From a virus, in the IMG/VR virus record IMGVR_UViG_3300035156_000171, positions 1 through 45,573 of that record: DNA of 45,573 nucleotides. One strand, 5' to 3'. The translations under genes were made by a program, and so were the position numbers. The notes under the pieces were generated by a model that was not told the origin of the DNA, searched no databases, and worked only from the letters and a program-made list of their open reading frames with translations. The first letter of the stretch is position 1. Every line of letters begins with the position of its first letter. Positions 1,970-42,300 of this stretch are shown here, one piece after another.

Positions 1970-2372
1970 AGCGAAGGCCTGGGCCGATATCGTTATAAGC
2001 ATCGTTGTCGCCGTTGGCGGCGGCGGCACAGTCGCGGCCGTAATCGGCTACATGAAGTCGAAGCGCGAGCCTCCAGCGCATATCGCTCCCCCGACGCCTG
2101 CGGGCGGGATCGCGCAACAGATCGGCGGAATGGTCCTTTCGCAGACGGCCGTCGAGGGGATCACGGCGGCCCTCAATGCCCTTGCGGTGGCGTACACCGC
2201 TCACACCCTCCAGTGCGCGGCCGACAACAAGTCCAGGCGCGAGGAGATGGAAGCGCAGCGCAAGCATGAGCGCGATCTTGCGAGCGACGCGCAGCGCGAG
2301 ATGAAGACGTTAAACGACCATCTCGACACGCTCGGAACCCGCATCAAGAATATGCCGGGGTGCGGTGCCTAG
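1956..2372 (+). CDS. N-terminal TM plus coiled-coil protein (138 aa), i-spanin/Rz-like or holin accessory
   Basis: ATG 1956. TM segment WADIVISIVVAVGGGGTVAAVIGY followed by charged helical REEMEAQRKHERDLASDAQREMKTLNDHLDTL. Last gene of the rightward block. Confidence 0.45.
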   Translation: MSPVEAKAWADIVISIVVAVGGGGTVAAVIGYMKSKREPPAHIAPPTPAGGIAQQIGGMVLSQTAVEGITAALNALAVAYTAHTLQCAADNKSRREEMEAQRKHERDLASDAQREMKTLNDHLDTLGTRIKNMPGCGA

Positions 2373-2752
2373 TTCCGCAGGCTGCGCGCGGCGATCCCGT
2401 TCTCGACAGCGGCGCGGTGTGCGTCTATTTTGCCGCCCATGATCTCGACGCGAAGTGGCAGCAGGCCATCGTGGATCGCGGCGTATTCGCGCCAGGACTT
2501 GCGGCCCGCGCGCTGCCTCTCGTCTTCCTGACGCCATTCGAGGGCGAGGCGGCAGACGATCGTCCAGAGCCCGCGCGCCTTGGCAAGGCCGCGCTCGTAC
2601 CGCACCATCATGAACAGGTCGTATAGCTGAGCGCCGCGCGTCATGCGCCGATTGTTGAACGCCTTGCGGCACTCGACGGCGCAGAATGAATTCGTGTCGC
2701 GGTCGCGCTTGGCGGTGAAAGGCAGGCCGCATTCCCGGCAGTTCGTGCACAT
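2369..2752 (-). CDS. Zinc-ribbon protein (127 aa), function unknown
   Basis: Internal ATG 2752 with GGGGACGGA upstream. N-terminus is MCTNCRECG...FCAVECRK (CxxC...CxxxC). It lies 57 bp downstream of palindrome copy 1. Confidence 0.6.
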   Translation of the reverse strand: MCTNCRECGLPFTAKRDRDTNSFCAVECRKAFNNRRMTRGAQLYDLFMMVRYERGLAKARGLWTIVCRLALEWRQEDERQRAGRKSWREYAAIHDGLLPLRVEIMGGKIDAHRAAVENGIAARSLRN

Positions 2753-2808
2753 TGATCCGTCCCCACGGTATCGGCTAGTCGCCAGCCGCGGGGACGGTGT
2801 AGGTGGTA

Positions 2809-2825
2809 GTTGACAGCGTGTCAAC
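2809..2825 (-). promoter_or_regulatory. Palindrome copy 1, GTTGACAGCGTGTCAAC (TTGACA -35-like on both strands): putative promoter/operator
   Basis: Perfect 7-N3-7 inverted repeat between the stop at 2828 and the start at 2752. On the minus strand, TACACC lies 17 nt after TTGACA. Confidence 0.55.
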
Positions 2826-2827
2826 AG

Positions 2828-3250
2828 CTACGCGACGCGACGGCTCCGGCGGCCGGTGGCGACCTCCTCGATCGCTTCGGACTGCTGATCTCCCTCGGAC
2901 TGAACCTCGATCACGGCGTCATCGGCTTCTTCGCCGATCCGGTCATGATGCGTGCCGTTCACGCTTACGCGCGATGGCTCCTCCTCGGTCGCGCCACCGC
3001 TGCCCGGCCCGGTGGACTGCGTGTCGACCGTCTCGGGCATGGTCGCCGGGGTCTCGGGCTTCTCGCGGCTCGTGTAGCGGTGGTCGACGCCGATCACGAC
3101 AGCGCCGGCCGTCGCCAGCTTGTCGAGCGTGCCGTAATCCTTGGCCGCCTGGATCGCGGTCGCCTTCGCCGTAGTGTCGTTCAAGTCCTTCGGGTTCACG
3201 GGAAGAAACATCTTCACCGTGAGGGCGTACCCCTGTTCGCGCTTTGCCAT
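2828..3250 (-). CDS. Hypothetical protein (140 aa, acidic C-terminal half)
   Basis: ORF in the track, GC3-rich, in the leftward gene array. Confidence 0.6.
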   Translation of the reverse strand: MAKREQGYALTVKMFLPVNPKDLNDTTAKATAIQAAKDYGTLDKLATAGAVVIGVDHRYTSREKPETPATMPETVDTQSTGPGSGGATEEEPSRVSVNGTHHDRIGEEADDAVIEVQSEGDQQSEAIEEVATGRRSRRVA

Positions 3251-3280
3251 GTCATCGGTTCCTGTGCTGATTTGCGGTGA

Positions 3281-3457
3281 TTACGAGCGCGCGGTGCGCG
3301 TCCGATTGAACTGTTCTTTTTCGCCCTCCGGCTGGTAGCCCTCGCGCTTGTCGCGCCAGTATTTCCAGCCTTGATTGGCGTGAGGACGGCCCATGCGGGC
3401 CTCTTTCCTGTACGCGGGCCTATACGATCCGGCCCGGCGCGGGTTTTTCTCTCCCAT
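3281..3457 (-). CDS. Small basic protein (58 aa), below the ORF-track cut-off
   Basis: ATG 3457 overlaps the upstream TGA (TGATG). Translates MGEKNPRRAGSYRPAYRKEARMGRPHANQGWKYWRDKREGYQPEGEKEQFNRTRTARS*. Confidence 0.45.
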   Translation of the reverse strand: MGEKNPRRAGSYRPAYRKEARMGRPHANQGWKYWRDKREGYQPEGEKEQFNRTRTARS

Positions 3458-4098
3458 CAAATGTACTCCTTTTCGGCCGGACTATCCGCGCCGTTCTCTC
3501 CTCTGACCTCGCCCGGCTCCGGGTCGCGATCGGGATTTCCATCGACGGCCTGGGCCGCCTGATTAAGTTCGTGCGAGATGGCGTCGAGCGCCGTGTTCGC
3601 GCGAGGGTCTAGGCCAGACCGGAATGCGACAAGAGCCGCGACCCCCTTGCCGGCCTCTGCCCTAGCGGCGGCGAACAAGCGATCCCGGCTGCTCGTCTTC
3701 GCCTCGGCAGCGATGGGCTTGACCGTGTACGGCGAGCGCTTGGCCCGCGTCACGGTCAGGGCCATCGTCACGTCGCGCTCGATGTCTGAGACGTGGCTGA
3801 TCCGAATGCCGCCGACTTTCATGCCGCCGAACATCACGTCTTTATCGCAATACAGCGTCATGCGCCGCCCGGCATAGGACGCGCCGTCCGCGCCCCACAC
3901 CGATATGAGAACGCGCCGCATCGACTTGCACGGCTTGTAGGGCTTGCCGTTGTCGCCCTCGAAACTGATCGCGACAGGCTGATCGGGGTCAGAGGCGCGA
4001 GAGACCTTTACGACCTTGATCGTGCGCGGGCCGGCGATCAAGTCGTCGGCGTTGAGTTGGTCGCTCTTGGGAGCGATGGTTTGGGATAGATCAGTCAT
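3457..4098 (-). CDS. Conserved-looking phage protein (213 aa), candidate single-strand annealing or ssDNA-binding partner of the exonuclease
   Basis: Overlaps the exonuclease stop. Core sequence is KPCKSMRRVLISVWG...MFGGMKVGGIRISHV. I cannot name a family. Confidence 0.6.
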   Translation of the reverse strand: MTDLSQTIAPKSDQLNADDLIAGPRTIKVVKVSRASDPDQPVAISFEGDNGKPYKPCKSMRRVLISVWGADGASYAGRRMTLYCDKDVMFGGMKVGGIRISHVSDIERDVTMALTVTRAKRSPYTVKPIAAEAKTSSRDRLFAAARAEAGKGVAALVAFRSGLDPRANTALDAISHELNQAAQAVDGNPDRDPEPGEVRGENGADSPAEKEYI

Positions 4099-4790
4099 AC
4101 GACGATGTCCTGAATTTTGCGCTCGGTCGGCACGGCTTTCGACGAAAGGACGGCTTCTTCATATTTTAAACGGGCAAGATGAAGCCTCTCCTCGAAACCT
4201 GCGGCAGCGTGTAGGATCGCCGACTGCACATTGTCATCGGGATACGCGCGTATCACGGCCATCGGCAGGCCGCCGGAATACGAGACCACGTCGCACCACG
4301 CCCGCTCTGTGACAAGCAGTCCGGTCTGAACCTGAAGCATGAATTCAGCAGGAACGGTGCCGTCGTACACGTCGACAACGAACGTCTCGACCTGATACTT
4401 TTGCCGCCGTGACTTGGCCTCGACAAGGCCGTCCTCGCTCACGATCGCGTCCGGCGAATAGCCGATCGTGAAGCCCCATTGGTCGTTCGTGATGAAACCG
4501 ACCCGCTCGATTGGGCTGTGGCGTTCGGAGTAGATGCGAAGCGCCTCGACCTCGTCCTCGATACCGCGAAGCATGTCGAAACTGACGTAATGCGGCTCGA
4601 CATATTTCGTAATCCGCTGGGCCAGCAACTCATACAGGTGCGAACGCTCCTTTTCGTTGCTCGCAATCTTGAGCGTTGGCGTAAGGATCAAATTCATTTC
4701 GCTCGCCGTGAGCAATCCGCAACGCGCGGCAAGCCATTCGTCCGACCCCTGCACTAGGTCGGCGTGAATCGTGATGTGAGAGCCGTTCAT
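4095..4790 (-). CDS. YqaJ / lambda-exonuclease-like PD-(D/E)xK recombination exonuclease (231 aa)
   Basis: GSDEWLAARCGLLTASE (YqaJ N-terminal signature) and YSPDAIV..DGLVEAKS..Q (D...ExK). Internal ATG 4790 overlaps the upstream stop. Confidence 0.8.
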   Translation of the reverse strand: MNGSHITIHADLVQGSDEWLAARCGLLTASEMNLILTPTLKIASNEKERSHLYELLAQRITKYVEPHYVSFDMLRGIEDEVEALRIYSERHSPIERVGFITNDQWGFTIGYSPDAIVSEDGLVEAKSRRQKYQVETFVVDVYDGTVPAEFMLQVQTGLLVTERAWCDVVSYSGGLPMAVIRAYPDDNVQSAILHAAAGFEERLHLARLKYEEAVLSSKAVPTERKIQDIVV

Positions 4791-5047
4791 CACAGGCCCT
4801 CCACAGGCGCGTATTCTATAGACAAGGAAAACTTGAAGCCACCTTCCATCATGGCAGACCACGCCTCGCGAAGCGCATCGACGGCGGTTGGCCCTCGACC
4901 CGTCGCTTTGACCTCAAGCGCGCGATCCCGGAACGACACCGCCGCAGACCACCTTATCTCAGGCGAGATGTAGCTTTCGCTATGTCGCATAAGGGCGAAG
5001 TCGCCGCCGTGACGGTCGATCGTATCGAAAATTTCCTCAAAGTTCAT
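4790..5047 (-). CDS. Hypothetical protein (85 aa), first gene of the leftward recombination block
   Basis: ATG 5047, 42 bp from palindrome copy 2. GC3-rich. Confidence 0.6.
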   Translation of the reverse strand: MNFEEIFDTIDRHGGDFALMRHSESYISPEIRWSAAVSFRDRALEVKATGRGPTAVDALREAWSAMMEGGFKFSLSIEYAPVEGL

Positions 5048-5088
5048 GGCCTTGCCTTTCAGTGTCCCCGCCGCCATTTGCACCGATA

Positions 5089-5105
5089 GTTGACAGCGTG
5101 TCAAC
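5089..5105. promoter_or_regulatory. Palindrome copy 2, GTTGACAGCGTGTCAAC, in the 78-bp divergent intergenic region: shared back-to-back -35 elements / operator
   Basis: Lies between leftward ATG 5047 and rightward ATG 5126. Minus strand: TTGACA-17 nt-GCAAAT. Plus strand: TTGACA-16 to 18 nt-GATATGCG, ending 6-8 nt before ATG 5126. Confidence 0.6.
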
Positions 5106-5125
5106 GCGCTTGATATGCGTGGCTC

Positions 5126-5437
5126 ATGAGCATCGAGAACACCCCAGCCGGTCGGCTTGTCGCCCTGTTCGCGGAACCCGGAGCCGGTGGGCAGCACGGC
5201 CACGGCCTGGCTAGATTTTGCGAAGCTTCCGGTCTGCACAAGTCGACCGTATCGCGGTGGCTCTCGACGACAGCCAAGCGTGCGACGGCGGGGCAAATAC
5301 CCGATCGGTTCCACGCGGACGTGATTGCCGCCGTCGACAAGGCGGGTATGCCTCGATCCGTGCTGCGCCCGATCCTGCCGGCCGTGTCGACCTGCCCACG
5401 GTGTGGGTCGGCTATCGCGCCGGGGCAGCGGGCGTGA
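5126..5437 (+). CDS. Cro/YdaS-like helix-turn-helix regulator (103 aa)
   Basis: GLHKSTVSRWL HTH-like segment. No Shine-Dalgarno upstream, so possibly leaderless. First gene of the rightward island, next to the palindrome. Confidence 0.6.
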   Translation: MSIENTPAGRLVALFAEPGAGGQHGHGLARFCEASGLHKSTVSRWLSTTAKRATAGQIPDRFHADVIAAVDKAGMPRSVLRPILPAVSTCPRCGSAIAPGQRA

Positions 5438-6177
5438 TCCATTACCACGGGACGCCCATCTCACCGGCTGATGTTTTTCTGACGCTCCGAGGCCGTCATT
5501 TCTGCGTGTCGCATGCGCAGCCGCAGGACATCGAGCGCGCGCACAAGGTTGGGCAAGGCGTCATGCTCGACAACGGGGCTTTTACGAAGTGGAAGAAAAA
5601 CCGGCCGACCGATTGGCCGTCGTTCTACGAGTGGTGCGATAGATGGCTCGCGCACCCGAACACATGGGCTGTGATCCCTGACGTCATCGACGCTGGGGCG
5701 CAGCTACAGGACGCTCTTTTGCGCGAATGGCCGTTCGGGCATCGGGGCGCACCCGTCTGGCATATGGACGAGCCGCTTGGCCGGCTGTCCAAGCTCACCC
5801 TCGAATGGCCGCGCGTGTGCATCGGATCGACTGCGGAATTCGCTCGCGTGTTGTCTGATCCTTGGCGCGGCCGGATGGATGAATGTTGGAACGAGCTGGC
5901 CCGGCATCATCGACGCACGCCTCCGGTTCACATGCTCCGGGGGATGCAGTGCTCTGGCCGCGAGTGGCCGTTCGCGAGTGTCGACAGCTCTGACATCGCG
6001 CAAAATCACAACCGCCCGTACAACACCGCGCTCGACATGGCGAACCGCTGGGACGCGATGCAATGCCCTGGCGCGTGGTTGCCGCCGGAGGATCGCAAGC
6101 TGTTCGCCCTCGGGCGCGCGCCTCGATCGGCGAAAGAGCGCTTCGATCATTATGCAGCGATGGCTTCCGAGATATGA
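5434..6177 (+). CDS. DpdA-like (TGT-fold) putative 7-deazaguanine DNA transglycosylase (247 aa)
   Basis: GTG 5434 overlaps the upstream TGA. The blocks HYHGTP, VMLDNGAFTKW, FYEW, AVIPDVIDAG and APVWHMDE resemble the DSGAFS, LDVIGD and PVFH blocks I recall from phage DpdA proteins. This rests on recollection only. Confidence 0.45.
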   Translation: MIHYHGTPISPADVFLTLRGRHFCVSHAQPQDIERAHKVGQGVMLDNGAFTKWKKNRPTDWPSFYEWCDRWLAHPNTWAVIPDVIDAGAQLQDALLREWPFGHRGAPVWHMDEPLGRLSKLTLEWPRVCIGSTAEFARVLSDPWRGRMDECWNELARHHRRTPPVHMLRGMQCSGREWPFASVDSSDIAQNHNRPYNTALDMANRWDAMQCPGAWLPPEDRKLFALGRAPRSAKERFDHYAAMASEI

Positions 6178-7652
6178 ACCTCCTCTCGCCGACGCCTCGC
6201 CCGATCGAGCTGCGCCCGTTCCAGTCGGACATGATCGATCAGACCCGCGCGGCGCTCCAGCGGCACAAAGCGGTCATGGTCCAGATGCCGACCGGCGCTG
6301 GGAAGACTGTCACGGCGGCTGCGATGATGCAGGGCGCGGTCCAGCGCGGCGGGCGGCCCTGGTTCGTCTGCCATCGCGATTTTCTCGTAGATCAAACGAG
6401 CCTAACCCTGGAGCGGTTCGGCCTCGATCACGCTTTCATCTCTGCCGGTCGACGCTGGAACCCGTACCTGCCCGCTCAGGTCTGCTCGATCGACACGCTC
6501 CGCAATCGGCTCGGGCGCGTCCCTGACGCCTGCCGGCCGACTGTGTTGTTCGTGGACGAGGCCAAGCATTCGAGTGCGGCGTCGTGGTCCGGCGTGATCC
6601 GCTGGGCGATCGAGAACGGAGCGAAGGTGGTTGGCCTCGACGCAACGCCCAAGCGACTAGACGGAAAGGGTCTCGACGACTTGTACGGGGCGATGATCCT
6701 GGGGCCGTCCGTCGAGTGGCTGATCGAGCAAGGCTACCTGTCGCGCTACCGCGCGTTCGCGCCGACCATGCCGGACCTGTCTGGCGTCGGCACGCGGGCC
6801 GGAGACTACAACGCCGAACAGCTCGGCGAGGTGATGGATCGCGACAGCCTGACCGGGAACCTCGTCGAGCATTACCTGCGGCTCGCGCCCGGCAAACGGG
6901 CGATCTATTTCTGTGTGAGCGTCATGCATTCGCAGCACGTCGCGGCGGCTTTCCGCGCGGCCGGCGTTTCTGCCGTCCACCTCGACGCGGCCTCGCCCTC
7001 AGACGAGCGCCGGTCGGCCGCGCGTGGCATGGCGATCGGCGAGATTGACGTGATCTGCAACGTCGCACTGTTTGGTGAGGGATACGATCTTGCGGCGCAA
7101 GCCGGCATGGATGTCACGGTGGAGTGCGTGGGCCTCGCTCGCCCGACGAAGTCGCTCGCGATGGCAATGCAGCAAATGGGGCGGGCTCTGCGGCCGAAGC
7201 CCGATGCGGCGATCATCCTCGATCATGCCGGCATCCTCACGGACCCGGCGATTGGCCTGCCGGATGCCGATCGGGAATGGACCCTGGAAGGCACGGCGCG
7301 CAAGTCGAAGAAATCCGCGCCGACCGCACCGCCCGTTCGCGTGTGCCCGAAATGCTTTGCGACGTGCGGCGCGTCCTCGCGGGCGTGCGTCGAGTGCGGC
7401 GAGCCGTTCCCGATCGACGCGCGGATGATGGCAGAGAACGACGATACGCTCGTCGAGATAGACCCGGCCGAACTCAAGCGCGTGCGGAAGATGCAGGAGC
7501 ATCAAGCGACGACGCTCGACGATCTGGTCGCTGTCGGTCAGGCGAGGGGGTATGCCAAACCGAAAATTTGGGCGGCCAATTTGTGGGCTGCGCGCGAGCG
7601 AACCCGGCATGCTCGGACTGAGCAGGCTGCGGCTCAACAGAAGTTGTGGTGA
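6174..7652 (+). CDS. Superfamily-2 DEAD/DEAH-type DNA helicase with a C-terminal zinc ribbon (492 aa)
   Basis: MPTGAGKT (Walker A), VDEAKH (Walker B), LDATP (motif III), QQMGRALR (motif VI), CPKCFATCG...CVECG. ATGA overlap with the upstream gene. Confidence 0.85.
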   Translation: MNLLSPTPRPIELRPFQSDMIDQTRAALQRHKAVMVQMPTGAGKTVTAAAMMQGAVQRGGRPWFVCHRDFLVDQTSLTLERFGLDHAFISAGRRWNPYLPAQVCSIDTLRNRLGRVPDACRPTVLFVDEAKHSSAASWSGVIRWAIENGAKVVGLDATPKRLDGKGLDDLYGAMILGPSVEWLIEQGYLSRYRAFAPTMPDLSGVGTRAGDYNAEQLGEVMDRDSLTGNLVEHYLRLAPGKRAIYFCVSVMHSQHVAAAFRAAGVSAVHLDAASPSDERRSAARGMAIGEIDVICNVALFGEGYDLAAQAGMDVTVECVGLARPTKSLAMAMQQMGRALRPKPDAAIILDHAGILTDPAIGLPDADREWTLEGTARKSKKSAPTAPPVRVCPKCFATCGASSRACVECGEPFPIDARMMAENDDTLVEIDPAELKRVRKMQEHQATTLDDLVAVGQARGYAKPKIWAANLWAARERTRHARTEQAAAQQKLW

Positions 7653-7654
7653 CA

Positions 7655-7903
7655 ATGGACCAGTGGCGACCAATCGAGACCGCGCCGAAGGACGGGACCA
7701 TTGTTCTGCTGGGCGGCGGAACCTGGGGTGATGACGAATTGGCCGAGGCTCCGCGCTCGATGTCGGCGCGGTATTACGAGCGCCGGTGGGATGGCCGGCT
7801 ATTTAGCTATTGGGTCGTTTTTTCCGCAGAAGCGGGGCATAGTCTTTTTCCATATGAAAACCCGACGCATTGGCAACCCATGCCGTCCGGCCCTGTCGCA
7901 TGA
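7655..7903 (+). CDS. Small conserved phage protein (82 aa) with a WxPIETAPKDGT motif
   Basis: MDQWRPIETAPKDGTIVLLGG is a motif common in proteobacterial prophage small proteins. I do not recall the family name. Confidence 0.55.
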   Translation: MDQWRPIETAPKDGTIVLLGGGTWGDDELAEAPRSMSARYYERRWDGRLFSYWVVFSAEAGHSLFPYENPTHWQPMPSGPVA

Positions 7904-8160
7904 ACCCGGACGACACTTGGATCGCGCGGTACATGCTGCGCGACGGCCTGACGGAGGGCGCGGTAGCGCGCATCCTGGGTGTCTCGATCGAGGCTGTGAT
8001 GCTTGTGGTCCCGTTGCGCGACAGGTTGGGCAAGCGCATATCGCCGGCCTACGTCGCGGCGGCGGATCGCAGCGCGGCGAAACAACGGCAGGGGCGCAGA
8101 GATGCACGAGCGCGACTTAATCAACCCGATCCTGCTCAAGGCGTCGAAGATCGGGTGTAG
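7900..8160 (+). CDS. Small HTH-like protein (86 aa)
   Basis: ATGA overlap at 7900. LTEGAVARILGVSIEAV is HTH-like. Overlaps the next gene by 59 nt, so the 3' end or the call is uncertain. Confidence 0.45.
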   Translation: MNPDDTWIARYMLRDGLTEGAVARILGVSIEAVMLVVPLRDRLGKRISPAYVAAADRSAAKQRQGRRDARARLNQPDPAQGVEDRV

Positions 8161-8491
8161 GTTGTTCCGGGTGAACACCGGCGTCGGGTGGGTCGGCCGG
8201 GTCATCTCCAAGACGACGGGCCGGATTATACTCGGCGACCCGCGCCCGCTCCATGCCGGCCTATGCGCTGGCGGGTCTGATATCATTGGCTTGCGGCGCG
8301 TCACGATCACGCCGGACATGGTCGGCACGGTCATCGCTCAGTTCGTGGCGATCGAGGTCAAGACGCCCGGCGACAAGCAGAGCGACGAGCAAGAGCGGTT
8401 CCTAGAAATGGTTCGGGCCTCCGGCGGTTTCGCGCTGGAGGCCCGTGACGTTGATTCGGTCTTGGCAGCGTTAAGCGAGCGTGCGGGATAG
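8102..8491 (+). CDS. VRR-NUC domain nuclease (129 aa)
   Basis: GGSDIIGL...VAIEVKTPGDKQSDEQERFLEMV matches the VRR-NUC D...ExK...Q pattern. Confidence 0.75.
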   Translation: MHERDLINPILLKASKIGCRLFRVNTGVGWVGRVISKTTGRIILGDPRPLHAGLCAGGSDIIGLRRVTITPDMVGTVIAQFVAIEVKTPGDKQSDEQERFLEMVRASGGFALEARDVDSVLAALSERAG

Positions 8492-8644
8492 GACCGCCTC
8501 GACCATCGCGCGGTGCGCCTCCAGCGCGAGATGCAGGCCGTAGGCCGCACTCGCGATCCCGAAGTTGACGCGACCGCCGCCAGCCTCGGATGTCTGCCGG
8601 TCAAGCTCGCGCCAGAAGCGGAGGAATTCGGTTTCCTGTTTCAT
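8471..8644 (-). CDS. Small hypothetical protein (57 aa), below the ORF-track cut-off
   Basis: GGGGA Shine-Dalgarno 6 nt before ATG 8644. MKQETEFLRFWRELDRQTSEAGGGRVNFGIASAAYGLHLALEAHRAMVEAVLSRTLA*. GC3-rich. Its 3' end overlaps the convergent VRR-NUC gene by 21 nt. Confidence 0.4.
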   Translation of the reverse strand: MKQETEFLRFWRELDRQTSEAGGGRVNFGIASAAYGLHLALEAHRAMVEAVLSRTLA

Positions 8645-8668
8645 GATGCGTCCCCGTGTTGCGGTTGT

Positions 8669-8690
8669 GGCCGCGCCGGGTGGCGCGGCC
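8669..8690 (-). other. GC hairpin (9-bp perfect stem GGCCGCGCC/GGCGCGGCC, 4-nt loop) without a U-tract
   Basis: Lies between the stop at 8699 and the start at 8644. Possible attenuator, processing or stability element. Confidence 0.35.
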
Positions 8691-8698
8691 GGCGGTGG

Positions 8699-9097
8699 TT
8701 AGAAGCTGTAATCGTGATATGCGCGGCGCTCGCCGAGCCGGAGCCCCTTGCCCCCGGTCTTGTTCCAGCGGTTCGTTTCGGGGTTCTTGCGGACTGGAGC
8801 CCATTTACCAGAAACTTCGCGCTTGTACGTGGAGCGGTATCCGTCCGGGTTCGATGTGTAGCTGTATTCCTGACACTCGCTCATACCGTTGCTGTCGGTG
8901 CGGGTCGCGGTGTCGTCTGTTACTTCGATGAACGTAGACTTCCCTACCGTGAATACGCGCTGGATCGTCCCGGCGCTGCGGTCCGTCCAGCCGAGCATGG
9001 TGACACCCATGCCGGCTTCCGGCTCGGGCTGGCGCACAACCATACGGCTGTAAAGGTGGTTCTGAAGGCTGTTTGTCTCGGTGCCGATACGCATCAT
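8699..9097 (-). CDS. Hypothetical protein (132 aa)
   Basis: ORF in the track. Start is 54 bp downstream of palindrome copy 3. Confidence 0.6.
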   Translation of the reverse strand: MMRIGTETNSLQNHLYSRMVVRQPEPEAGMGVTMLGWTDRSAGTIQRVFTVGKSTFIEVTDDTATRTDSNGMSECQEYSYTSNPDGYRSTYKREVSGKWAPVRKNPETNRWNKTGGKGLRLGERRAYHDYSF

Positions 9098-9150
9098 TTT
9101 TCCCCGTTTTATCGTCTAGTCGCGAGCCGCCCGACTTCTCTACACGTCGA

Positions 9151-9167
9151 GTTGACACGCTGTCAAC
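9151..9167 (-). promoter_or_regulatory. Palindrome copy 3, GTTGACACGCTGTCAAC: putative promoter/operator
   Basis: Perfect 7-N3-7 palindrome in the 169-bp intergenic region. On the minus strand, TTGACA is followed 17-18 nt later by GTAGAGA. Confidence 0.55.
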
Positions 9168-9188
9168 CCGGTACGCGGCGCAACGCGA

Positions 9189-9220
9189 AACGCCCGCCAG
9201 GGGCGAACCTGACGGGCGTT
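9189..9220 (-). terminator. Putative terminator hairpin for the upstream leftward genes
   Basis: 8-bp stem AACGCCCG/CGGGCGTT, followed on the minus strand by TCGCGTTG. Lies between the stop at 9267 and palindrome copy 3. Confidence 0.4.
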
Positions 9221-9266
9221 CCTCAAGCGCGGGGACGCTGATAGGCGGTGAAGCCCGGTCAGATTT

Positions 9267-9503
9267 CTAGCCGTGCGTCGCTACAGCGTCAAGCGTGCGC
9301 TGCGCGGCGATGGCTTCCCGGATCGTCTGCTCGTGATCCTGCATGAACGCGAGCGTGTTCCTGACGCTCCGCAGCACGGCCATGTGGTATTCGACCTGAC
9401 CTTCCGGCACCTTGGCCTTGCGCAACGTGGCGCGCATGTGGATCGTAACCGTGTCGAGCGTCAACATCTGCATCGACAGGCTGTGCCGCGTCTTAGTTTC
9501 CAT
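9267..9503 (-). CDS. Hypothetical protein (78 aa)
   Basis: ORF in the track. Overlaps the primase stop by 11 nt. Confidence 0.55.
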   Translation of the reverse strand: METKTRHSLSMQMLTLDTVTIHMRATLRKAKVPEGQVEYHMAVLRSVRNTLAFMQDHEQTIREAIAAQRTLDAVATHG

Positions 9504-11973
9504 CGTCCCCTCCCTCGATCACGTAACACGGTATCAGCCGGCCATCGACCCGGCGGCGAACGCGCACATACCCGCGCGACTTGAGGTGCGACGCGATCCG
9601 CCGCTCATGCTGGTCATTCCGCAGGTGCTTCGGGATATCAAGGAAGGTGAACAGCGCGCCCATCGTAAGCGGCATCGTCCCGACCATCGAGTTCAGGTAG
9701 GCGTCAAGGTCTCCGGCCCAAGCGTCCTCGACGTAGCGTGCCGCCTGCACCTCGGACGCGTGGTCGTTTTCTTCGCCCTCAAGCCACCACTTCATGCCGG
9801 CCCGGTAGAGGTGGACCGCCTCGGCCCAAAGCTGGTCGCGATCGGCGGCCAGTCCGTCGATGTCCATTGGGCGCGTCACGCGGACGGGCCAGAAGCGTCG
9901 AGCCCCAGTCGGATCGCGTAGGTATCCCCGGCCACCTGGGTTGACGGTTCCGGCAAGCACGCACCGCCTGGGAATGTTCACGACGATCTTGCCGTATGGG
10001 AGGCGGATGCGGTCAACCTTCGTCGAGACCCACCGCTTGATCCCGTCCGGGTCCGATTTTCCGAAGCCGTTCAGCTCGGCAATTTCGACTATGACTGTAC
10101 CCTGCATCTGCATCACTGCGTCTTTGCTTGATATGTCGTCGATGCTGTCGACGAAATATCTGCGCCCGTTCATGGTCGCCAAGGTTTCAAGCGCAGTAGA
10201 CTTATGCTTTCCTTGCGTTCCCTCGAAGATCAACATCGTATCGACCTTCTCGCCGTCCGGGTTCGTCGACAGGTTCCGAGCCACGGCGGCGAGGAGCCAT
10301 TTTGCACCAAACACGCGCTCGATACCGTTCGCAGTCGGCGTGACGCCCATATACCGCTCAAGCCATGACACTTCGCCCATCACGCGCGAGACGCCGTCCC
10401 ATTTCAGCGCCTCAAGGTAGTCTCGTATCGGGTCGAACGCGGCGCTCTCGGCGACCGTCATGATTGCCGTGCCGGCCTCATTCGTCTTCGGCGTCATGCC
10501 GCACTTTTCTAGGAAGGTTTGGCAGAGCGTGATGTCGTTATCCCGGAGCGTGCGCGGCACCCACGGCGCGGATGACTTTTCCCACGGCGGGCGCTTCGCA
10601 AGCACGACCTCGGCGGTGAAAGTGTTCTTCACGAATACGCCGCGCGTCAGCTCGTGGTGCCGGAGGGTCGCGACGAAATTGTACATGAGCCGTTTGCGCG
10701 GCCCATTGTTCTCGTCGAGCAACCAATACGCCTGAATAGGCGTGCGATCGACGTGATCCTCCTCCGGGTGGGCTGTCGGGAATTTTACGACATTTCCCTT
10801 GCCCGGCGGGCTCTCGGCCGCTGACGGTGCCTTCTTGGCGATTTCCGGCTTTGGCTTCGGTTGCCCGGTCTGGATCAAGGCCGGCGTCGGCTCTGGCGCT
10901 GGCGGCTCGGGGTCGGGCTCGGGTTCGGGTTCGGGGATGCCCGGAGGAGCGTCCCTGAGGTGAGCCCGCGCCCATTTCATCGCCCGCTTGGCGTCCCACC
11001 CCTCAGCCTCGGCGTCGGCCAGGTCCCATCCCTTCGGCATGTCTGCCGGCGGATCAACGATCTTTACCTGCGCCGCGCCGGCCCGCTCGATCATTTCGGC
11101 GAGCCCGAGTTTGTGGTTCGCGCCCTCGCCCCATCCGTCGACCGTTTTTAGACCCTCTTCGTCGGCGTCCCGCCAGATGACGACGCGCCGGCCGGCAAGA
11201 GGCGTCCAATCCGTCTTGCTCGCCGCTTTCCCGCCGCCGCACCACGTCACGGTCGCGAACGACTTGAGCATCCTTTCGCCCGCGTCGGCGCACTTCTCGC
11301 CCTCGACGACTAGCACCTGGGCGTCTGGTCTCAGCGCGAGGCGGTCTAGGCCGTACATGCGACGGGGCTCGCGCATCGGCCGGTGCGTCCATCCTTGCTC
11401 GCCGGTCCTCACGTTGCGGCACCACAGAATGCAAGGTGTGACCTTGGAGCCGTCGATGTCGACCCGGAGCACGTATCCGAACGTCCGGCCGGTGACGAGC
11501 CGGTACGGGTGAACGAGTGTCGGCGTGTAACTCGTAATGGGTTTGTCGGGGCGCTTCGGATTGAATAATGCTGGCGTGCGCTGCCCGGCTTTCAGCGGGG
11601 GCGCGTCGTCAGGCGGCATCGAGGCGACCCAATCCGCATATGGGTCGAACTGCTCGATCGGCGGGCTCGCCGGTTGCCGAAACCCGTCCGGTTTGCGGTC
11701 GCCGTTCAAGATTTCGCACGCGCCCTGAAAGTCGACGCCGTCGAACAGCTCGACGAACTTGACCACATCGCCGTTCTTGCCACAGCCGAAGCAATGGAAC
11801 CGCTGCCCGTCCTCTCGGGCCGGGTAGATCGTGAACGACGGCGTCGTCTCGCTGTGGAGCGGGCAACAGGCGCGCCATTCCGCGCCGTCCCGCTTGATCG
11901 AGATGCCTCTTAGCGGCAGGTAATCCGACAGGTTGTTCGCCTGCCGAATTCCTTGCGTGTCGAATTTTGCCAC
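9493..11973 (-). CDS. Bifunctional primase/helicase: CHC2 zinc finger, Toprim domain, Pro-rich linker and VirE-like P-loop NTPase (826 aa)
   Basis: CCPLHSETTPSFTIY...FHCFGCGKNGDVVKF (DnaG CHC2). VLVVEGEKCADAG and VIWRDADEEG (Toprim E, DxD). PEPEPEPDPEPPAPEP linker. MLIFEGTQGKHKSTALETLA (VirE-type Walker A). Confidence 0.9.
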   Translation of the reverse strand: MAKFDTQGIRQANNLSDYLPLRGISIKRDGAEWRACCPLHSETTPSFTIYPAREDGQRFHCFGCGKNGDVVKFVELFDGVDFQGACEILNGDRKPDGFRQPASPPIEQFDPYADWVASMPPDDAPPLKAGQRTPALFNPKRPDKPITSYTPTLVHPYRLVTGRTFGYVLRVDIDGSKVTPCILWCRNVRTGEQGWTHRPMREPRRMYGLDRLALRPDAQVLVVEGEKCADAGERMLKSFATVTWCGGGKAASKTDWTPLAGRRVVIWRDADEEGLKTVDGWGEGANHKLGLAEMIERAGAAQVKIVDPPADMPKGWDLADAEAEGWDAKRAMKWARAHLRDAPPGIPEPEPEPDPEPPAPEPTPALIQTGQPKPKPEIAKKAPSAAESPPGKGNVVKFPTAHPEEDHVDRTPIQAYWLLDENNGPRKRLMYNFVATLRHHELTRGVFVKNTFTAEVVLAKRPPWEKSSAPWVPRTLRDNDITLCQTFLEKCGMTPKTNEAGTAIMTVAESAAFDPIRDYLEALKWDGVSRVMGEVSWLERYMGVTPTANGIERVFGAKWLLAAVARNLSTNPDGEKVDTMLIFEGTQGKHKSTALETLATMNGRRYFVDSIDDISSKDAVMQMQGTVIVEIAELNGFGKSDPDGIKRWVSTKVDRIRLPYGKIVVNIPRRCVLAGTVNPGGRGYLRDPTGARRFWPVRVTRPMDIDGLAADRDQLWAEAVHLYRAGMKWWLEGEENDHASEVQAARYVEDAWAGDLDAYLNSMVGTMPLTMGALFTFLDIPKHLRNDQHERRIASHLKSRGYVRVRRRVDGRLIPCYVIEGGDDGN

Positions 11974-12010
11974 CGGTCCCCCGAGCGCTAATCGTCCGGT
12001 ATATCCCGGC

Positions 12011-12127
12011 TTAGGCCGGCAAGGCGACCCATGCGAAAGCGGCAGCGAGCCACATGATCGAGATGCCGATGATGTCGAGGATCATCGCGCGTCGGTAGGC
12101 GCGGTCGGTATGTTCGTTCGTTGTCAT
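12011..12127 (-). CDS. Small membrane protein (38 aa)
   Basis: GGGGGA Shine-Dalgarno before ATG 12127. MTTNEHTDRAYRRAMILDIIGISIMWLAAAFAWVALPA. Lies 44 bp downstream of palindrome copy 4. Confidence 0.4.
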   Translation of the reverse strand: MTTNEHTDRAYRRAMILDIIGISIMWLAAAFAWVALPA

Positions 12128-12170
12128 GGCAAGCGTCCCCCTGGTTGCCGATTGATCGTGATCGCAATAA

Positions 12171-12187
12171 GTTGACAGAGTGTCAAC
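12171..12187 (-). promoter_or_regulatory. Palindrome copy 4, GTTGACAGAGTGTCAAC: putative promoter/operator
   Basis: Perfect 7-N3-7 palindrome. It contains the TGA stop of the 12183..12452 gene. An A/T-containing hexamer (GATCAC) lies 17 nt after the minus-strand TTGACA. Confidence 0.55.
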
Positions 12188-12452
12188 CGGACTGGGGATT
12201 ACCCCCGGCTTCAATGATTTTCGGGGCAACAGGCCGACAGAGAATGCAGGCCTTCAGCCCGGAGCCGCACGCGAGGTGGACGTTGCCGTTTGTTCTGAGA
12301 TTGCCGCGGCACTCGATCGCGTAGCCGTTGCGCCCGCCAACCTCGACGTTCGCTATATACGGGGCTTGGCCGACGAGCCGGTTGATGAGCCAGAAACGGG
12401 CGGCCTCGCCACGGCTCTCTATTAGGGCGATTATTTGTTTACCGATCAGCAT
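12183..12452 (-). CDS. Hypothetical protein (89 aa)
   Basis: GC3-rich codons. Overlaps the upstream gene by 14 nt. Confidence 0.5.
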   Translation of the reverse strand: MLIGKQIIALIESRGEAARFWLINRLVGQAPYIANVEVGGRNGYAIECRGNLRTNGNVHLACGSGLKACILCRPVAPKIIEAGGNPQSG

Positions 12453-14735: not shown

Positions 14736-15647
14736 CTATTCTTCGTTTTCGGCAAGAAACGACACAACGTCGTCCCATCGATCCGAGCATGTGATTAGCA
14801 TTTCCTTGTTTTTGGCTTCTTCGGCCATGTCCTTTTCCCATTGATCCTCGTCGATCAACTCGCGAACCGCGTTCTTTATCAAATCGTCGAGCATCCTAGG
14901 ATCGAGCGCGTCAAGCTCCCAACTCTCGTCGCCGTGCTCGGCCGCATATCCGGCGTGCCGGCTGTCGGTTTCCTTCGCCGGGTTGGGCGGCGGGCTGTGC
15001 TCCTCGATCTGCGCCATATTCAGCGCCAGCCGCTCGACCTCGACGCCGAACCGCGAGAACATCTCTAGTCGATCCCGGTTGTCGCGCGTCATGTCCACGC
15101 CGGACGGATCATGGTCGCCGAGGTGAAACACGACGACACGTTTTCGCTGGCCCTTGCCTATCGCGCCCAGCCTCTTGCCGGCCGCCCACTGTTCGCTCTG
15201 GCTGACGTAGCCACGACAGGAGAAGAACGGCACGCGCAACGGCTGACACGCCCGTTCGATCACGCCGGCAAGGGCCTCCTTCTCGACCCATACCTCGCAG
15301 TAGGCTTCCTGATTTCGCCATGGGTTTTCCATGTACTGATCCGCGACAGCGCTGATGATCGCTTCGGGTGAACTCCAGACGTTGGGCGATGTCAGGTTCC
15401 GGGTCCGGTCTACGATCGCGGACCAGTCGATCAGCCCGGCCATGCGGCCGTCGTTCACGATCTGCCCAAGGCGCTTGTATTCGGACTGCTTGTTCTCAAT
15501 CAACGCGCGACTAACGAACTGATAATACAATTGCCGCAACGTTAGCTCGTAACCCTGTCTTTGGTATTCGAGAATAATCGAATTCGCCTGCGCGATTACC
15601 TCCAAGCTCGATCGCCGAAAATTCTTTAATTCGAACTGCTCTTTCAT
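14736..15647 (-). CDS. Spo11 / topoisomerase-VI-A-like Mini-A protein (5Y-CAP plus Toprim, 303 aa)
   Basis: LTLRQLYYQFVSR (Tyr41/42 at 15522..15527), EVWVEKEAL (Toprim Glu122), FHLGDHDPSGVDM (DxD, Asp178/180). ATGA-coupled to DUF4031. Confidence 0.8.
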   Translation of the reverse strand: MKEQFELKNFRRSSLEVIAQANSIILEYQRQGYELTLRQLYYQFVSRALIENKQSEYKRLGQIVNDGRMAGLIDWSAIVDRTRNLTSPNVWSSPEAIISAVADQYMENPWRNQEAYCEVWVEKEALAGVIERACQPLRVPFFSCRGYVSQSEQWAAGKRLGAIGKGQRKRVVVFHLGDHDPSGVDMTRDNRDRLEMFSRFGVEVERLALNMAQIEEHSPPPNPAKETDSRHAGYAAEHGDESWELDALDPRMLDDLIKNAVRELIDEDQWEKDMAEEAKNKEMLITCSDRWDDVVSFLAENEE

Positions 15648-16515: not shown

Positions 16516-16825
16516 AATCTTTTCAACCTCTTACCCCTGATCTTAAGAGACATAGATAGAAAGTGAGATTAAATATTAGAGGGGAAAGGTACAACCTTTT
16601 GAAATTTATCGCAATAGGTTTACCAAACGGGCTCTATCTGCCATAGCTTGTACGTAACAGCATGGAACTGCGGGAGGTGAACCTATGGGGCCAAATATCA
16701 ACTTTGTTTTCGGGTCCGACATGAACACGCGACGCGTACTTAAACCCATATAAACACACGCAAACGAGTGTGTACGTGCGATTTTTTTGTGCGAAAACGC
16801 ACACGTTCATATTTGAGGGAAATCC
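16516..16825. promoter_or_regulatory. AT-rich divergent control region between the leftward and rightward operons
   Basis: About 310 bp, clearly less GC-rich than the rest of the genome. Contains sigma70-like hexamers, a short ORF with a strong Shine-Dalgarno (16685..16753), two short inverted repeats and a T7 run (16782..16788). Confidence 0.6.
16566..16594 (-). promoter_or_regulatory. Candidate early-left promoter (TTGTAC-17 nt-TAATCT)
   Basis: On the minus strand, -35 is at 16594..16589 and -10 at 16571..16566, about 45 nt upstream of ATG 16515. Confidence 0.3.
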
Positions 16826-17011
16826 ATGAAGGGCGAAGAAAAAGTTTTGCACGTCGTTCCAACGTTGCACCCCGACAACACTCGGTCAGTCGAGGGGGTA
16901 TCATGGCCCCGAAAGCGGCTTACGGAGCGGTCCCCGGAGGCTGTAAAACGGATCGCGGAATTGATGCGGCAATCCAGGGTTCGGCGGGATTTCGGAGGGG
17001 TCGAGGAATGA
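16826..17011 (+). CDS. Hypothetical protein (61 aa), first rightward ORF
   Basis: GAGGGA before ATG 16826. Stop overlaps the next ATG (ATGA). Confidence 0.4.
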   Translation: MKGEEKVLHVVPTLHPDNTRSVEGVSWPRKRLTERSPEAVKRIAELMRQSRVRRDFGGVEE

Positions 17012-17414: not shown

Positions 17415-17568
17415 ATATCGGATAGCGAGGGCTCGGGCCTGTGAGCCAATCGACATTGAGGAAGCTGGCTTGAAAATCCGTCAACACGGCATGGACGGCT
17501 GGCGCGTGACCTGTTGCGTTGCGACTGAGGGGTGGGTTCTGTGGACACTTGAGAGGGAGGTGAAATGA
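17404..17568 (+). CDS. Small protein (54 aa), paralog A of a tandem pair (DUF4177-like GW..V...WTLEREVK)
   Basis: Not in the ORF track. MRFEYRIARARACEPIDIEEAGLKIRQHGMDGWRVTCCVATEGWVLWTLEREVK*. Confidence 0.5.
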   Translation: MRFEYRIARARACEPIDIEEAGLKIRQHGMDGWRVTCCVATEGWVLWTLEREVK

Positions 17569-39357: not shown

Positions 39358-42300
39358 ATGGCCGGATTGTTCGACGCTGCCGTTGAGGATGTCGCGGCAA
39401 GCGAGGACATGACGGCCCGCGCGGCGACGCCGGGTTCGACGCTGGCACCTCCCGCGCCGGCCTCCTCCGGCTCGCCGCTGGGCTCGACCGGGTTCGAAGA
39501 ATTGCCGGACCCGGCGAACGCGCCGGCCGCGACGCCTGCCCGCTCGATGTTCTCGGCCGCGGTCGATGACGTGGCGAACGACGACAACGCCCGTCTGTCC
39601 GGGGCGCTGGAGATGGCGCGCGCGTCCGACCCGGCGAAGTATGCGGAGGCGCGGGCAATTGCCGATCGCGACGCCCTGCCGATGGAATTCGTGACGGCTA
39701 ACCTCGATGATCTGAAATCGAGGCAGACGGCGAACGACATGCGCCGCGTTCTCGAAGACACGCCCGCGCTCAAGCAATGGTTCCTGACCGGCGACAACGC
39801 AAACGTCGTGAAGCGCGACGACTTGCACAAGCTTTCGGGCCTCGATCACCTGCTCGCGTCGAGCGCGGCCGGCTGGTCTGAGGGCTGGGATCAGCGGCAG
39901 TCGGCGGACATCCGATACCGCCAGATTTTCGGACGCGCATCGGCGGCCGAGATTGCCAGGGCGGACGCGGCGGACAAGCAAGAGGCGCGAGACTTCGGCG
40001 CGGAAGGGTTCTTCCAGGGCGCACCGGCCGCATTCTCCAAGATGCTGCCCGGCTTGCTGGGGTCGACCTCTGCCGGCCTCGCGCGCGCGTCTCAGACGGC
40101 ACCGGCCGGCGCGGCGCTCGGGGCGCTCGGCGCTGGCCCGGCGGGGGCGGCGGCGGGGTTCGCGACAGGCGCGGCGGTGGGCGTCACGGCCGGACGCCTG
40201 GAGGATAATTTTCGGCAGGAAGCCGGCGGGGCCTACTCCGAATTCCTGCGGATAAAGACGGACGACGGCGCGGGCCTCGACCCGGACATCGCCAAGGCGG
40301 CAGCGCTGATCGCGGGCATGGCGTCGGCCGGTCTGGAAACGATCGGCGAGGCGGCGATCGAGCGGATGGTTCCGGGCCTCGACAAGATCGGCGTGGCCTC
40401 GCTGCTCAAGGGCGGATCGCGCGAGGCGCTGAAAGAGGCGATCAAGCAACCATCGATTCGCGCAGCGCTCAAGGCGTTCGGCGGCGGGATCGCCGGAGCG
40501 ATGGGAACCGAGATTGGCACAGAAGTAGCTCAGGAGGGCGTCACGCTCCTTGCCGGGCTTGTGGCGCAGCGAGTGGACGGAGGCGAGTTTCAGGCCGTGG
40601 AAGGCCGAGAGGTGCGCGAGCGTCTAGTCGCTACGGCGACCGAGACGGCGCAGGCGATGCTGATCCTCGCGCCCGCGCTCGGGTCGACCCGGCTCGGTCG
40701 CGACCTTGCCGTTGCCAAGCGGTCGGTCGACATGCGCGAGATGTATCAGCAAGCGCACGACATGGCTGGAGAGACCGAGCTGCGAAAGGTTGCGCCGGAA
40801 CGCTACCTCGACGCGGTCAAGTCGTTCCTGGGCCAGGGCAAGGCAGCGGACACGGTCTACGTGCCGGCCGGCAAGATGACAGAGCTGTTCCAAGAGATGG
40901 GCCTGTCGCCGTCCGACCTCGACGCTCGGATCGACGGGTTCTCCGGTCGGTATGCGGAGGCGGTTGCGACCGGTTCGGATGTGCATATCGACATGGCCGC
41001 ATATCAGACGCACATCGCCGGCACGCCGCTCGGCGAGGCGCTGATCGAGCATCAACGGTGGCACCCGGAGCTTGAGACGGTCGACGAAGCGCGGCGGGCA
41101 TTCGAGGCCGCGCGCGAGCAAACGGACGCCATGCTTGAGGACGCCGTGAACGCGGCGCGCGAGGACGCGGCGAAGGCGGCTCCTCGCCAGCAAGTCGAAA
41201 CGAAGGTCTATGAACTGCTCGTCAACATCGGCGAAAGCCCGGAGGCCGCGCGGACCCAGGCGGCGTTGTACGGCGCGACGTTCGGGACGCTCGGCGAGCG
41301 GGCCGGCGTGTCTCCGCTGGAGCTGTTCGAGGCGCAAGGTCTCGACGTGCGTCGCGCTATGCCGGATGGCCTGGATTATCGCAAGGTCGATGAACTCGAA
41401 ATCGCCATCGACGCGGTGCGCAAGGGCGATGGAGAGCGGGCGCGCAGGGCCCGTGCAAGAGGCCAGGGACAAAGCCTCGCGTCGTTCCTGGCTTCGCGCG
41501 GCGGGCTCGTCGAGACGGATAGCTTCAAGGGCGAGCTGTCTTCGCGTGATTTGCCGAAGGGGCTGATCGGCAAGCCGGACAAGGGGCTCGACCTCGACAG
41601 CGCCGCGTTGGCCGCGCTTGAGGCCGGGTACTTCCCGGACGCTGTGACGGAAGACGGCGGGTTCGATCGAACAGGGTCCGTCGAGGCGTTGCTTGCTGCG
41701 ATCGACGACGAAGTTGCGGGACGCCCGCGTTACACGATCGAGGCGGAAGCGGTGAACATCGATCCGTCGCTTGCGCGGATCGAGGCGCTTGCGGATGAAA
41801 TGGCGATCCTCGGCCTAGACCCGGCGTCGATGACGAACGACGAAATTCGCGCTGAACTCATGAGATCGTCGAGCCCGGACGCTCTGAATGGAGCGCTGTT
41901 TCAGACGGCGGGCCGTCCCGACCTTGCCGGCGACCGTGGCGACAAGCGCGGCTCGATCCAGTTCGGCGACGGCTCGACCATCATCAACCTGTTCCGTGCC
42001 GCGAACCTGTCGACGTTCCTGCACGAAAGCGGCCACCTGTTTTACGAGGTGATGCAGCAAGTCGGCGGGCGCGAGGGTGCGCCGGATCAGCTCGCGACCG
42101 ACCTCGCGACGCTGCACGCCTTCACGGGTGCGGAGGTGGGCAAGCCCATCTCACGCGAGGCGCATGAGAAGTTCGCCAAGGCGTTCGAAACCTACCTCTC
42201 TGAGGGCCGCGCCCCATCCCCTGACCTTGCCGGCGTTTTCGAGCGGTTCAAGTCCTGGCTGATGTTCGTCTACCGCGGCGCGGCCCGCGCGATCGGCCTG

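Follow-up and report, generated by a model that had tools for sequence, protein, structure and literature searches.

How are the early genes of an uncultured phage controlled when one perfect palindrome recurs just upstream of several of them? The window studied here is the whole 45,573-nucleotide stretch of IMG/VR record IMGVR_UViG_3300035156_000171, and the element in question is GTTGACA-N3-TGTCAAC, a 17-bp palindrome found upstream of leftward genes in the early half of the genome. A preliminary description of this DNA had proposed that the palindromes form a phage-specific promoter class with the −35 hexamer embedded in a dimer-binding operator. Judged by its placement and its conservation in relatives, the palindrome is a real, conserved regulatory element. 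We favor, with a probability of about 60%, a reading in which its copies are early promoter-operator units whose −35 lies inside the binding site of one phage-encoded dimeric regulator.

Four perfect palindromes at early gene boundaries

A pattern scan for the perfect 7-3-7 palindrome returned exactly four matches (Table 1), which bears out the number and positions given in the preliminary description, and the palindrome did not occur once across 100 dinucleotide-preserving shuffles. Allowing up to three mismatches added only two weak sites, one at 3012 inside a coding region and one at 17469. The relaxed core TTGAC-N5-GTCAA, with at most one mismatch, matched six times against 0.95 expected, and eight of the 11 TTGACA hexamers in the whole genome sit in the four palindromes. 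All four copies are intergenic and fall within the early region at 2.8-12.2 kb, with a single palindrome per location and no tandem arrangement. Copies 1, 2 and 3 are one 17-mer or its inverse, copy 3 being inverted with respect to copies 1 and 2, and every copy is followed immediately by a T in the gene direction. A literature search for the motif yielded only incidental −35 sequences in oligonucleotides.

The spacing of the copies is that of promoters. The reported distances of 57, 42, 54 and 44 bp to the leftward ATGs at 2752, 5047, 9097 and 12127 were all correct, and so were the hexamers 17 nt downstream of the embedded TTGACA (TACACC, GCAAAT, GTAGAG and GATCAC). At copy 4 the distance stands, with the qualification that ATG 12127 opens only a 38-codon hydrophobic open reading frame (ORF) and the primase itself starts at GTG 11973. 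The statement that three of the four copies have GC-only sequence at this spacing in the opposite direction did not hold: the hexamers there are CGACGC, ATATGC, GCGGCG and GGGATT, only one of which is GC-only. Copy 1 occupies part of the 75 bp that separate ATG 2752 from the stop codon of ORF 2828-3250. At copy 4 the TGA stop (12183-12185) of ORF 12183-12452 is the TGA inside the palindrome's own TTGACA, and the same arrangement is seen in a relative (L208, 5632-5634), so that coding sequence and the next promoter are very tightly packed in both genomes.

Copies 1 and 3 provide an internal comparison. Their spacers and −10 regions are unrelated and similarity resumes at the start predicted from the 17-nt spacing, where a shared 21-nt leader block, GCGGCT(G/C)GCGACTAG(C/A)CGATA, begins at 2789 and at 9130. 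A common leader block that starts at the predicted +1 supports the promoter reading in the window. At copy 2, the preliminary description had the promoter of a rightward Cro-like gene share the palindrome, and we found a rightward TTGACA-N17-ATATGC that places ATG 5126 at the predicted start. This ATG has no Shine-Dalgarno sequence before it and is confirmed as the start codon by N-terminal alignment with relatives; the counterparts in those relatives have leaders of 17-20 nt with a Shine-Dalgarno sequence. The Cro-like mRNA is therefore probably leaderless. Copy 3 belongs to a self-contained cassette composed of a hairpin, a predicted promoter and gene 8699-9097. The hairpin reported before this copy is real, with a 15-bp G+C-rich stem, and it was not listed by a terminator scan because it lacks a U tract.

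Related genomes keep the dyad and its symmetry

Primase homologues were numerous, at 40-54% identity, on contigs of 45-47 kb that include stand-alone contigs in two Microvirga isolate assemblies. We fetched eleven related loci through the primase (given below by L numbers), the proteins of which are 40-55% identical to those of the window. The relatives keep the gene order: the Cro-like gene leads a helicase operon, the recombination operon runs divergently from it, and the primase operon follows farther along. The preliminary description had suggested a search of related phages for the motif, and this search found TTGAC-N5-GTCAA dyads in about nine diverged genomes at positions equivalent to copies 1, 2 and 4. 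The dyad is TTGACG-N3-CGTCAA in L121 and L124 and TTGACAC-N2-TGTCAC in L122, and L125, L208, L209, L210 and L211 carry further variants. Equivalents of copy 1 are present in L122 (18541), L124 (8955), L125 (20012) and L208 (15650), while equivalents of copy 4 precede the primase operon in L121, L122, L124, L208 and L209. The divergent region of copy 2 has a dyad or a TTGACA box in every relative. Three relatives (L123, L126 and L127) are without the family dyad; L123 has another dyad, GAACTTG-N10-CAAGTTC, which overlaps a CTTGACA box, and the two Microvirga elements have a single GTTGACA at the equivalent place, followed after 16 nt by TATTTT, a good −10. A single GTTGACA with a good −10 in these elements argues that TTGACA is the family's early −35.

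Symmetry was compared pair by pair over 24 sites of the family. Within the core, the outermost pair is symmetric at 18 of them and each of the other four at 22-24; the sixth pair is A-T in 11, G-C in four and mismatched in nine. No compensatory change was found in the core pairs among these sites. Direction mattered at the 11 one-directional sites that we compared: six core mismatches occur, every one of them on the gene-proximal side, with the upstream TTGAC unchanged throughout, and an inverted site in L122 (8602) serves a gene on the opposite strand, so that orientation follows the gene. Such asymmetry is expected if the upstream half serves both polymerase and regulator and the downstream half the regulator only. 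In L121 and L124 both halves are altered symmetrically (A to G and T to C), and the L122/L125/L208/L210 group has gained outer symmetric arms, CACG...CGTG. The accompanying filler is non-complementary, which favors contacts with protein over base pairing. Collectively, the symmetry kept at one-directional sites, the symmetric changes and the added arms argue for a dimeric protein and against a hairpin or a relic of promoter duplication.

Different dyads of 15-18 bp, again in several copies, are found in more distant helicase-bearing contigs of IMG/VR, and two of these dyads share the 6-3-6 or 6-5-6 layout. L168 carries GTTGCG-N5-CGCAAC, one copy of which separates the TTGACA −35 of a leaderless Cro-like gene from its −10; L146 carries AGCACA-N3-TGTGCT and L131 TATTTA-N6-TAAATA. 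In contrast to the window with its single sites, L122 has an operator array at 7490-7590, a cluster of four or five tandem TGACA-N3-TGTCA dyads; the leftward operon downstream of it contains a gene for a dATP/dGTP pyrophosphohydrolase.

A Cro-like protein is the leading candidate for the binder

The gene at 5126-5437 is the only helix-turn-helix gene kept beside the central site in every relative, and copy 2 lies 20 bp before its ATG. Its product gave a weak Pfam match to HTH_IclR, shows an XRE-like helix motif in alignment and is all-helical in a confident AlphaFold2 model (pLDDT 80). The family is small: a word-indexed search and a search of cultured phages found no homologue, and a full scan of 1.8 billion representatives gave 17 weak matches. 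A faint P22_Cro match in L127 is the only trace of homology to the Cro proteins of lambda or P22. We consider the Cro-like protein the most likely binder of the dyad. It is a candidate only, since it is kept in relatives that lack the dyad and its recognition helix does not track operator type.

A promoter-operator model for the early units

We infer promoter activity, protein binding, the binder's identity and the sign of regulation in a model that runs as follows. The upstream TTGACA half-site would be read as a −35 by the housekeeping RNA polymerase of the host, with a weak −10 placed 17 nt downstream, and the full 17-bp dyad would be the site of a phage-encoded dimeric DNA-binding protein. 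Once bound, this protein would occlude the −35 along with some 10 bp of spacer, thereby placing all units under joint control, namely the recombination operon, the 127-aa gene, the 132-aa cassette gene, the primase operon and the divergent Cro-like/helicase operon. As its level rises, the Cro-like protein may repress the promoter of its own gene and switch off early transcription. Repression is favored over activation because a bound protein would cover a consensus −35, because the L168 dyad sits in a spacer and because the regulator's own promoter carries a site. As for the proposal of a phage-specific promoter class, the −35 embedded in a dyad is supported by the relatives; the idea of a special class, with a polymerase or sigma factor of its own, is not. 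The −35 is the ordinary host consensus, and our scan, which covered part of the window's ORFs, turned up neither an RNA polymerase nor a sigma factor, and no integrase or ParA either.

Several observations weigh against this model. The −10 hexamers TACACC, GCAAAT, GTAGAG and GATCAC are poor, and for this reason none of the four copies passed a lenient sigma-70 consensus scan. No copy of the dyad is present at 16516-16826, the genome's main AT-rich divergent control region. Foldseek with the Cro-like model returned no significant match, with phage repressors and XRE proteins appearing only at E > 1; L123, L126 and L127 keep the Cro-like protein in genomes without the family dyad; and across the family no correspondence is seen between its recognition helix and the type of operator. 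Finally, a scan of IMG/VR for the exact dyad identified a 9.2-kb phage contig (L007, IMGVR_UViG_3300043399_001014) in which ten dyads of the form (TT)GTTGAC-N5-GTCAAC(AA) lie within 2811-8240, seven identical to GTTGACA-N3-TGTCAAC of the window and three of them GTTGAC-N5-GTCAAC variants. These dyads precede the ATGs of consecutive same-strand genes by 19-63 nt, and at four of the ten the ATG is only 35-39 nt from the start of TTGAC, leaving little or no room for a promoter and leader, so the dyad may do something else in that phage.

The contig L007 and the early region of the window have no proteins in common, and terminase-bearing contigs related to it (L026, L045 and L114) also carry the dyad. 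When the IMG/VR loci with the exact dyad were compared by blastp for a shared regulator, no common small protein was found, and this candidate was rejected. Independent convergence is plausible here because 12 of the 14 specified bases are a mirrored −35 consensus. That the dyad is instead a portable element, recognized by the host itself or by a factor that unrelated phages of high-G+C hosts have in common, seems to us quite unlikely; if it were so, action at the level of RNA or translation, or a series of leaderless transcripts, would come into question, and the logic would be unlike that of a Cro-type switch.

Alternatives to repression at a mirrored −35

The dyad could instead be an activator site, at which an early phage protein, possibly the Cro-like protein, recruits host RNA polymerase to delayed-early or middle promoters. 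Very weak −10 hexamers are what this would call for, and the largest early control region (16516-16826), being free of the dyad, could drive a first wave of transcription that supplies the factor. Activator-dependent promoters usually have a poor −35, however; that of the window's units matches the consensus perfectly, stands at the optimal spacing of 17 nt and would lie beneath the bound protein. The L168 dyad between the −35 and −10 of a Cro-like gene is in a repressor position, and a site at the Cro-like gene's own promoter fits negative autoregulation. We therefore regard activation as unlikely. A simpler possibility is that the copies are plain duplicated promoters with no dedicated regulator, their symmetry left over from the bidirectional copy 2 and later copied elsewhere. 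Copy 2 does serve two divergent genes with one TTGACA per strand, and a single 17-mer, direct or inverted, makes up copies 1, 2 and 3. Such a relic would not be expected to keep its symmetry at one-directional sites in about nine genomes with 40-55% protein identity, and recent copying cannot explain the symmetric change in L121 and L124 or the outer arms of the other group; we give this explanation little credence.

Explanations outside promoter recognition by a phage repressor fare worse. A nucleic-acid hairpin, either a stem-loop in read-through RNA that affects its processing, stability or translation or a DNA hairpin promoter extruded as in phage N4, would account for a 7-bp stem with a 3-nt loop that folds as RNA at −7.5 to −13.5 kcal/mol, for the three copies that lie between genes on the same strand and for the L007 dyads directly before ribosome-binding sites; the geometry also resembles that of N4 early promoters. 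The stem is nonetheless invariant and free of compensatory changes, its sixth pair is often mismatched, the outer arms are set off by filler that does not pair, and the asymmetry follows gene direction. An Rfam search of the dyad gave no match. N4-like hairpin promoters were rejected because there is no RNA polymerase among the ORFs scanned; the giant ORF of the window shows only an LPD22 domain and no structural match. A hairpin of either kind is thus very unlikely. More improbable still are sites for a host factor or dispersed, centromere-like partition sites of a plasmid-prophage, as in coliphage N15. Several relatives do have ParA genes and appear in Microvirga isolates as separate contigs of 45 kb, a ParB-like protein (14736-15647) is encoded in the window, and the identical dyad recurs in unrelated phage contigs. 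Against partition, no ParA was seen among the window ORFs scanned, dyads occur also in relatives without ParA, the ParB-like protein is missing from all dyad-bearing relatives fetched through the primase, and phage Mica encodes a ParB-family protein and has no such dyad; ParB/parS or N15-like sites were rejected on this distribution of the ParB-like protein. Against a host factor, the dyad sequence varies among lineages, which is a better fit to phage-encoded factors. The FNR/FixK box is TTGA-N6-TCAA, and a box of this type was rejected because its spacing does not match TTGAC-N5-GTCAA.

Comparison with known phage operators

The closest parallels to the promoter-operator model are the Cro and CI operators of lambda and P22 (PR, PRM and PL), which are likewise 17-bp dyad-symmetric sites and overlap promoter hexamers, as the sites of the window are proposed to do. 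As in those phages, one proposed operator lies in a divergent region beside a small Cro-like helix-turn-helix gene that it would autoregulate. The window differs in that its sites are single, perfectly symmetric and spread over four promoter regions, whereas those of lambda and P22 are imperfect and come in tandem triplets. It also lacks a CI-like gene opposite the Cro-like gene, the partner being an 85-aa ORF that heads the recombination operon, and its Cro-like protein, which bears an additional CxxC segment at the C terminus, is not detectably homologous to the Cro of lambda or P22.

Dispersed operators offer a second parallel. The early region of Streptomyces phage phiC31 reportedly contains highly conserved 17-bp inverted repeats between genes, one of which is said to lie at the repressor's own promoter, with one protein controlling many early units. 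Early promoters of phiC31 are reportedly not of the ordinary −35/−10 type. The window resembles phiC31 in having several conserved intergenic copies of one inverted repeat among early genes (4/4 in the window), and differs in that its repeat contains a consensus −35 and in host phylum and protein. The C1 operators of phage P1 (17 bp) and the gp71 stoperators of mycobacteriophage L5 (13 bp) are asymmetric, dispersed and much more numerous; the Pleft site of L5 overlaps a −35, and stoperators block elongation in an orientation-dependent manner. Here too one phage protein would act at several near-identical short sites at or between transcription units. The sites of the window, unlike these, are perfect dyads at promoter distance from gene starts, and copy 3 is inverted. 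Promoters for the virion RNA polymerase of phage N4 are inverted repeats with a stem of 5-7 bp and a 3-nt loop upstream of early genes, a stem-loop geometry and placement that the window shares. The likeness ends there: no virion RNA polymerase was found among the ORFs scanned, the center of the window's loop is not a conserved purine, its stem is the host −35 consensus, and the phage is of the epsilon15/BPP-1 type. The system is best read as one that functions in the manner of the phiC31 or P1 dispersed operators and of the lambdoid Cro operators while lying outside those protein families.

If the model is correct, it provides the first regulatory map for an uncultured family of approximately 45-kb Rhizobiales podoviruses, in which one small Cro-like protein and a dyad with an embedded −35 would coordinate four promoter regions and five early transcription units. 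It would also yield testable promoter-operator parts for alphaproteobacteria and a clean natural case of an operator built as a mirrored −35 box. A switch of this kind is already familiar in phages, and the general understanding of phage regulation would be unchanged.

The phage, its relatives and its gene content

The window is a whole metagenomic contig and a complete genome. A giant ORF at 39358-45573 continues in frame into positions 1-219, with its stop at 217-219, and this in-frame crossing of the contig ends shows that the genome is circularly closed. The product, of about 2144 aa, has an LPD22 polyvalent-protein domain, and phmmer against the PDB found no match to any solved structure, including the N4 virion RNA polymerase. 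By its late genes the phage is of the epsilon15/BPP-1/BcepC6B podovirus type; these encode a major capsid protein (PF20911), a portal (PF12236), small and large terminase subunits and a 1078-aa lytic transglycosylase/peptidase. On the plus strand of the early half the Cro-like gene is followed by a ResIII helicase, and the leftward operons encode a YqaJ exonuclease with its partners and a CHC2-primase/VapE helicase; DUF3850 and DUF4031 proteins are encoded there in addition to the ParB-like protein. The 127-aa gene downstream of copy 1 has counterparts at 56-61% identity in L122, L125, L208, L210 and L211, and tblastn with gene 8699-9097 found no relative in any fetched locus.

Table 1 Features of the four palindrome-associated units, with coordinates in the window
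Feature	Coordinates	Strand	Remarks
Palindrome copy 1 (GTTGACAGCGTGTCAAC)	2809-2825		proposed operator and −35 of leftward promoter for gene 2369-2752
Candidate −10, copy 1 (TACACC)	2796-2801	-	weak; placed by 17-nt spacing only; predicted +1 at about 2789
Leader block GCGGCTGGCGACTAGCCGATA	2769-2789	-	common to copy 3 leader; starts exactly at predicted +1
Gene downstream of copy 1	2369-2752	-	127 aa; N-terminal CxxC; PHROG 20494
Palindrome copy 2	5089-5105		in 78-bp divergent region; proposed to serve leftward operon promoter and rightward Cro-like promoter
Candidate −10, copy 2 leftward (GCAAAT)	5076-5081	-	weak; predicted
Candidate −10, copy 2 rightward (ATATGC)	5113-5118	+	ATG 5126 is predicted +1
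Recombination operon	2828-5047	-	85-aa ORF, YqaJ-type exonuclease, 213-aa protein, 140-aa protein
Cro-like helix-turn-helix gene	5126-5437	+	103 aa; XRE-type '..VSRW' helix; C-terminal CxxC; candidate regulator
Palindrome copy 3	9151-9167		inverse of copies 1 and 2; proposed operator and −35 for gene 8699-9097
Candidate −10, copy 3 (GTAGAG)	9138-9143	-	weak; predicted
Leader block GCGGCTCGCGACTAGACGATA	9110-9130	-	common to copy 1 leader; starts 1 nt after predicted +1 (9131)
Gene downstream of copy 3	8699-9097	-	132 aa
G+C-rich hairpin	9187-9222	-	strong; ends primase operon, directly upstream of copy 3; 15-bp stem, no U tract
Palindrome copy 4 (GTTGACAGAGTGTCAAC)	12171-12187		proposed operator and −35 of leftward primase operon
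Candidate −10, copy 4 (GATCAC)	12158-12163	-	weak; predicted
Operon downstream of copy 4	9267-12127	-	38-aa ORF (12011-12127), primase/VapE helicase (9493-11973), 78-aa ORF

No cultured phage is close at the DNA level, as megablast of the early half against cultured phages gave no match. A primase-based search for related loci in viral and genome collections and a helicase-profile search in genomes returned nothing, and a plasmid search returned distant helicases only. The window represents an undescribed family of approximately 45-kb podoviruses of alphaproteobacteria (Rhizobiales). ParA-type ATPases are encoded in L125 (13918-14592), L208 (9286-9957), L126 (18586-19272) and L127 (19983-20669), and the Microvirga elements are stand-alone contigs of 45.0 and 45.2 kb in isolate assemblies. 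Taken together, the ParA genes and the stand-alone contigs suggest that part of this family is probably maintained as a plasmid-prophage. In L126, an element of Microvirga mediterraneensis, a gene for an ECF-type sigma factor (14776-15255) lies inside the Cro-like/helicase operon; the corresponding operon of the window has none.

Other repeated sequences

The AT-rich divergent region at 16516-16826 (310 bp) lies between a leftward early operon and rightward small genes. It has no palindrome and contains other dyads, TGTGCG-N4-CGCACA (16788-16803) and ACACAC-N8-GTGTGT, and is probably a separate control region or origin. Its counterpart in L126 has six GGGGGAACGG repeats. We also considered GGGGAC/GGGACC, at a fixed distance from TTGAC, as a promoter element and rejected it, since in the window it is a ribosome-binding motif 5-7 nt before many ATGs. 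In L122, L125, L208 and L210 the longer sequence (g)gttGGGACC(A/G)aac precedes many starts (for example at 4494, 5667, 8735 and 11231 in L208), including some directly after terminator hairpins; its counterpart in the window is the shorter GGGGAC ribosome-binding motif only.

Finally, the octamer CTAGTCGC occurs 11 times in the window against about one expected, a number reached in 0/100 shuffles. In relatives there are three copies each in L122, L123 and L211 and none in L121 or L124-L127. The copies in the window lie in coding and non-coding DNA, on the plus strand at 2775, 9116, 17379, 17836, 21061, 29551 and 40624 and on the minus strand at 6660, 12552, 19491 and 23276, with the extended consensus cG(T/G)CTAGTCGC(T/C). 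Two of them fall within the leaders that follow palindromes 1 and 3.

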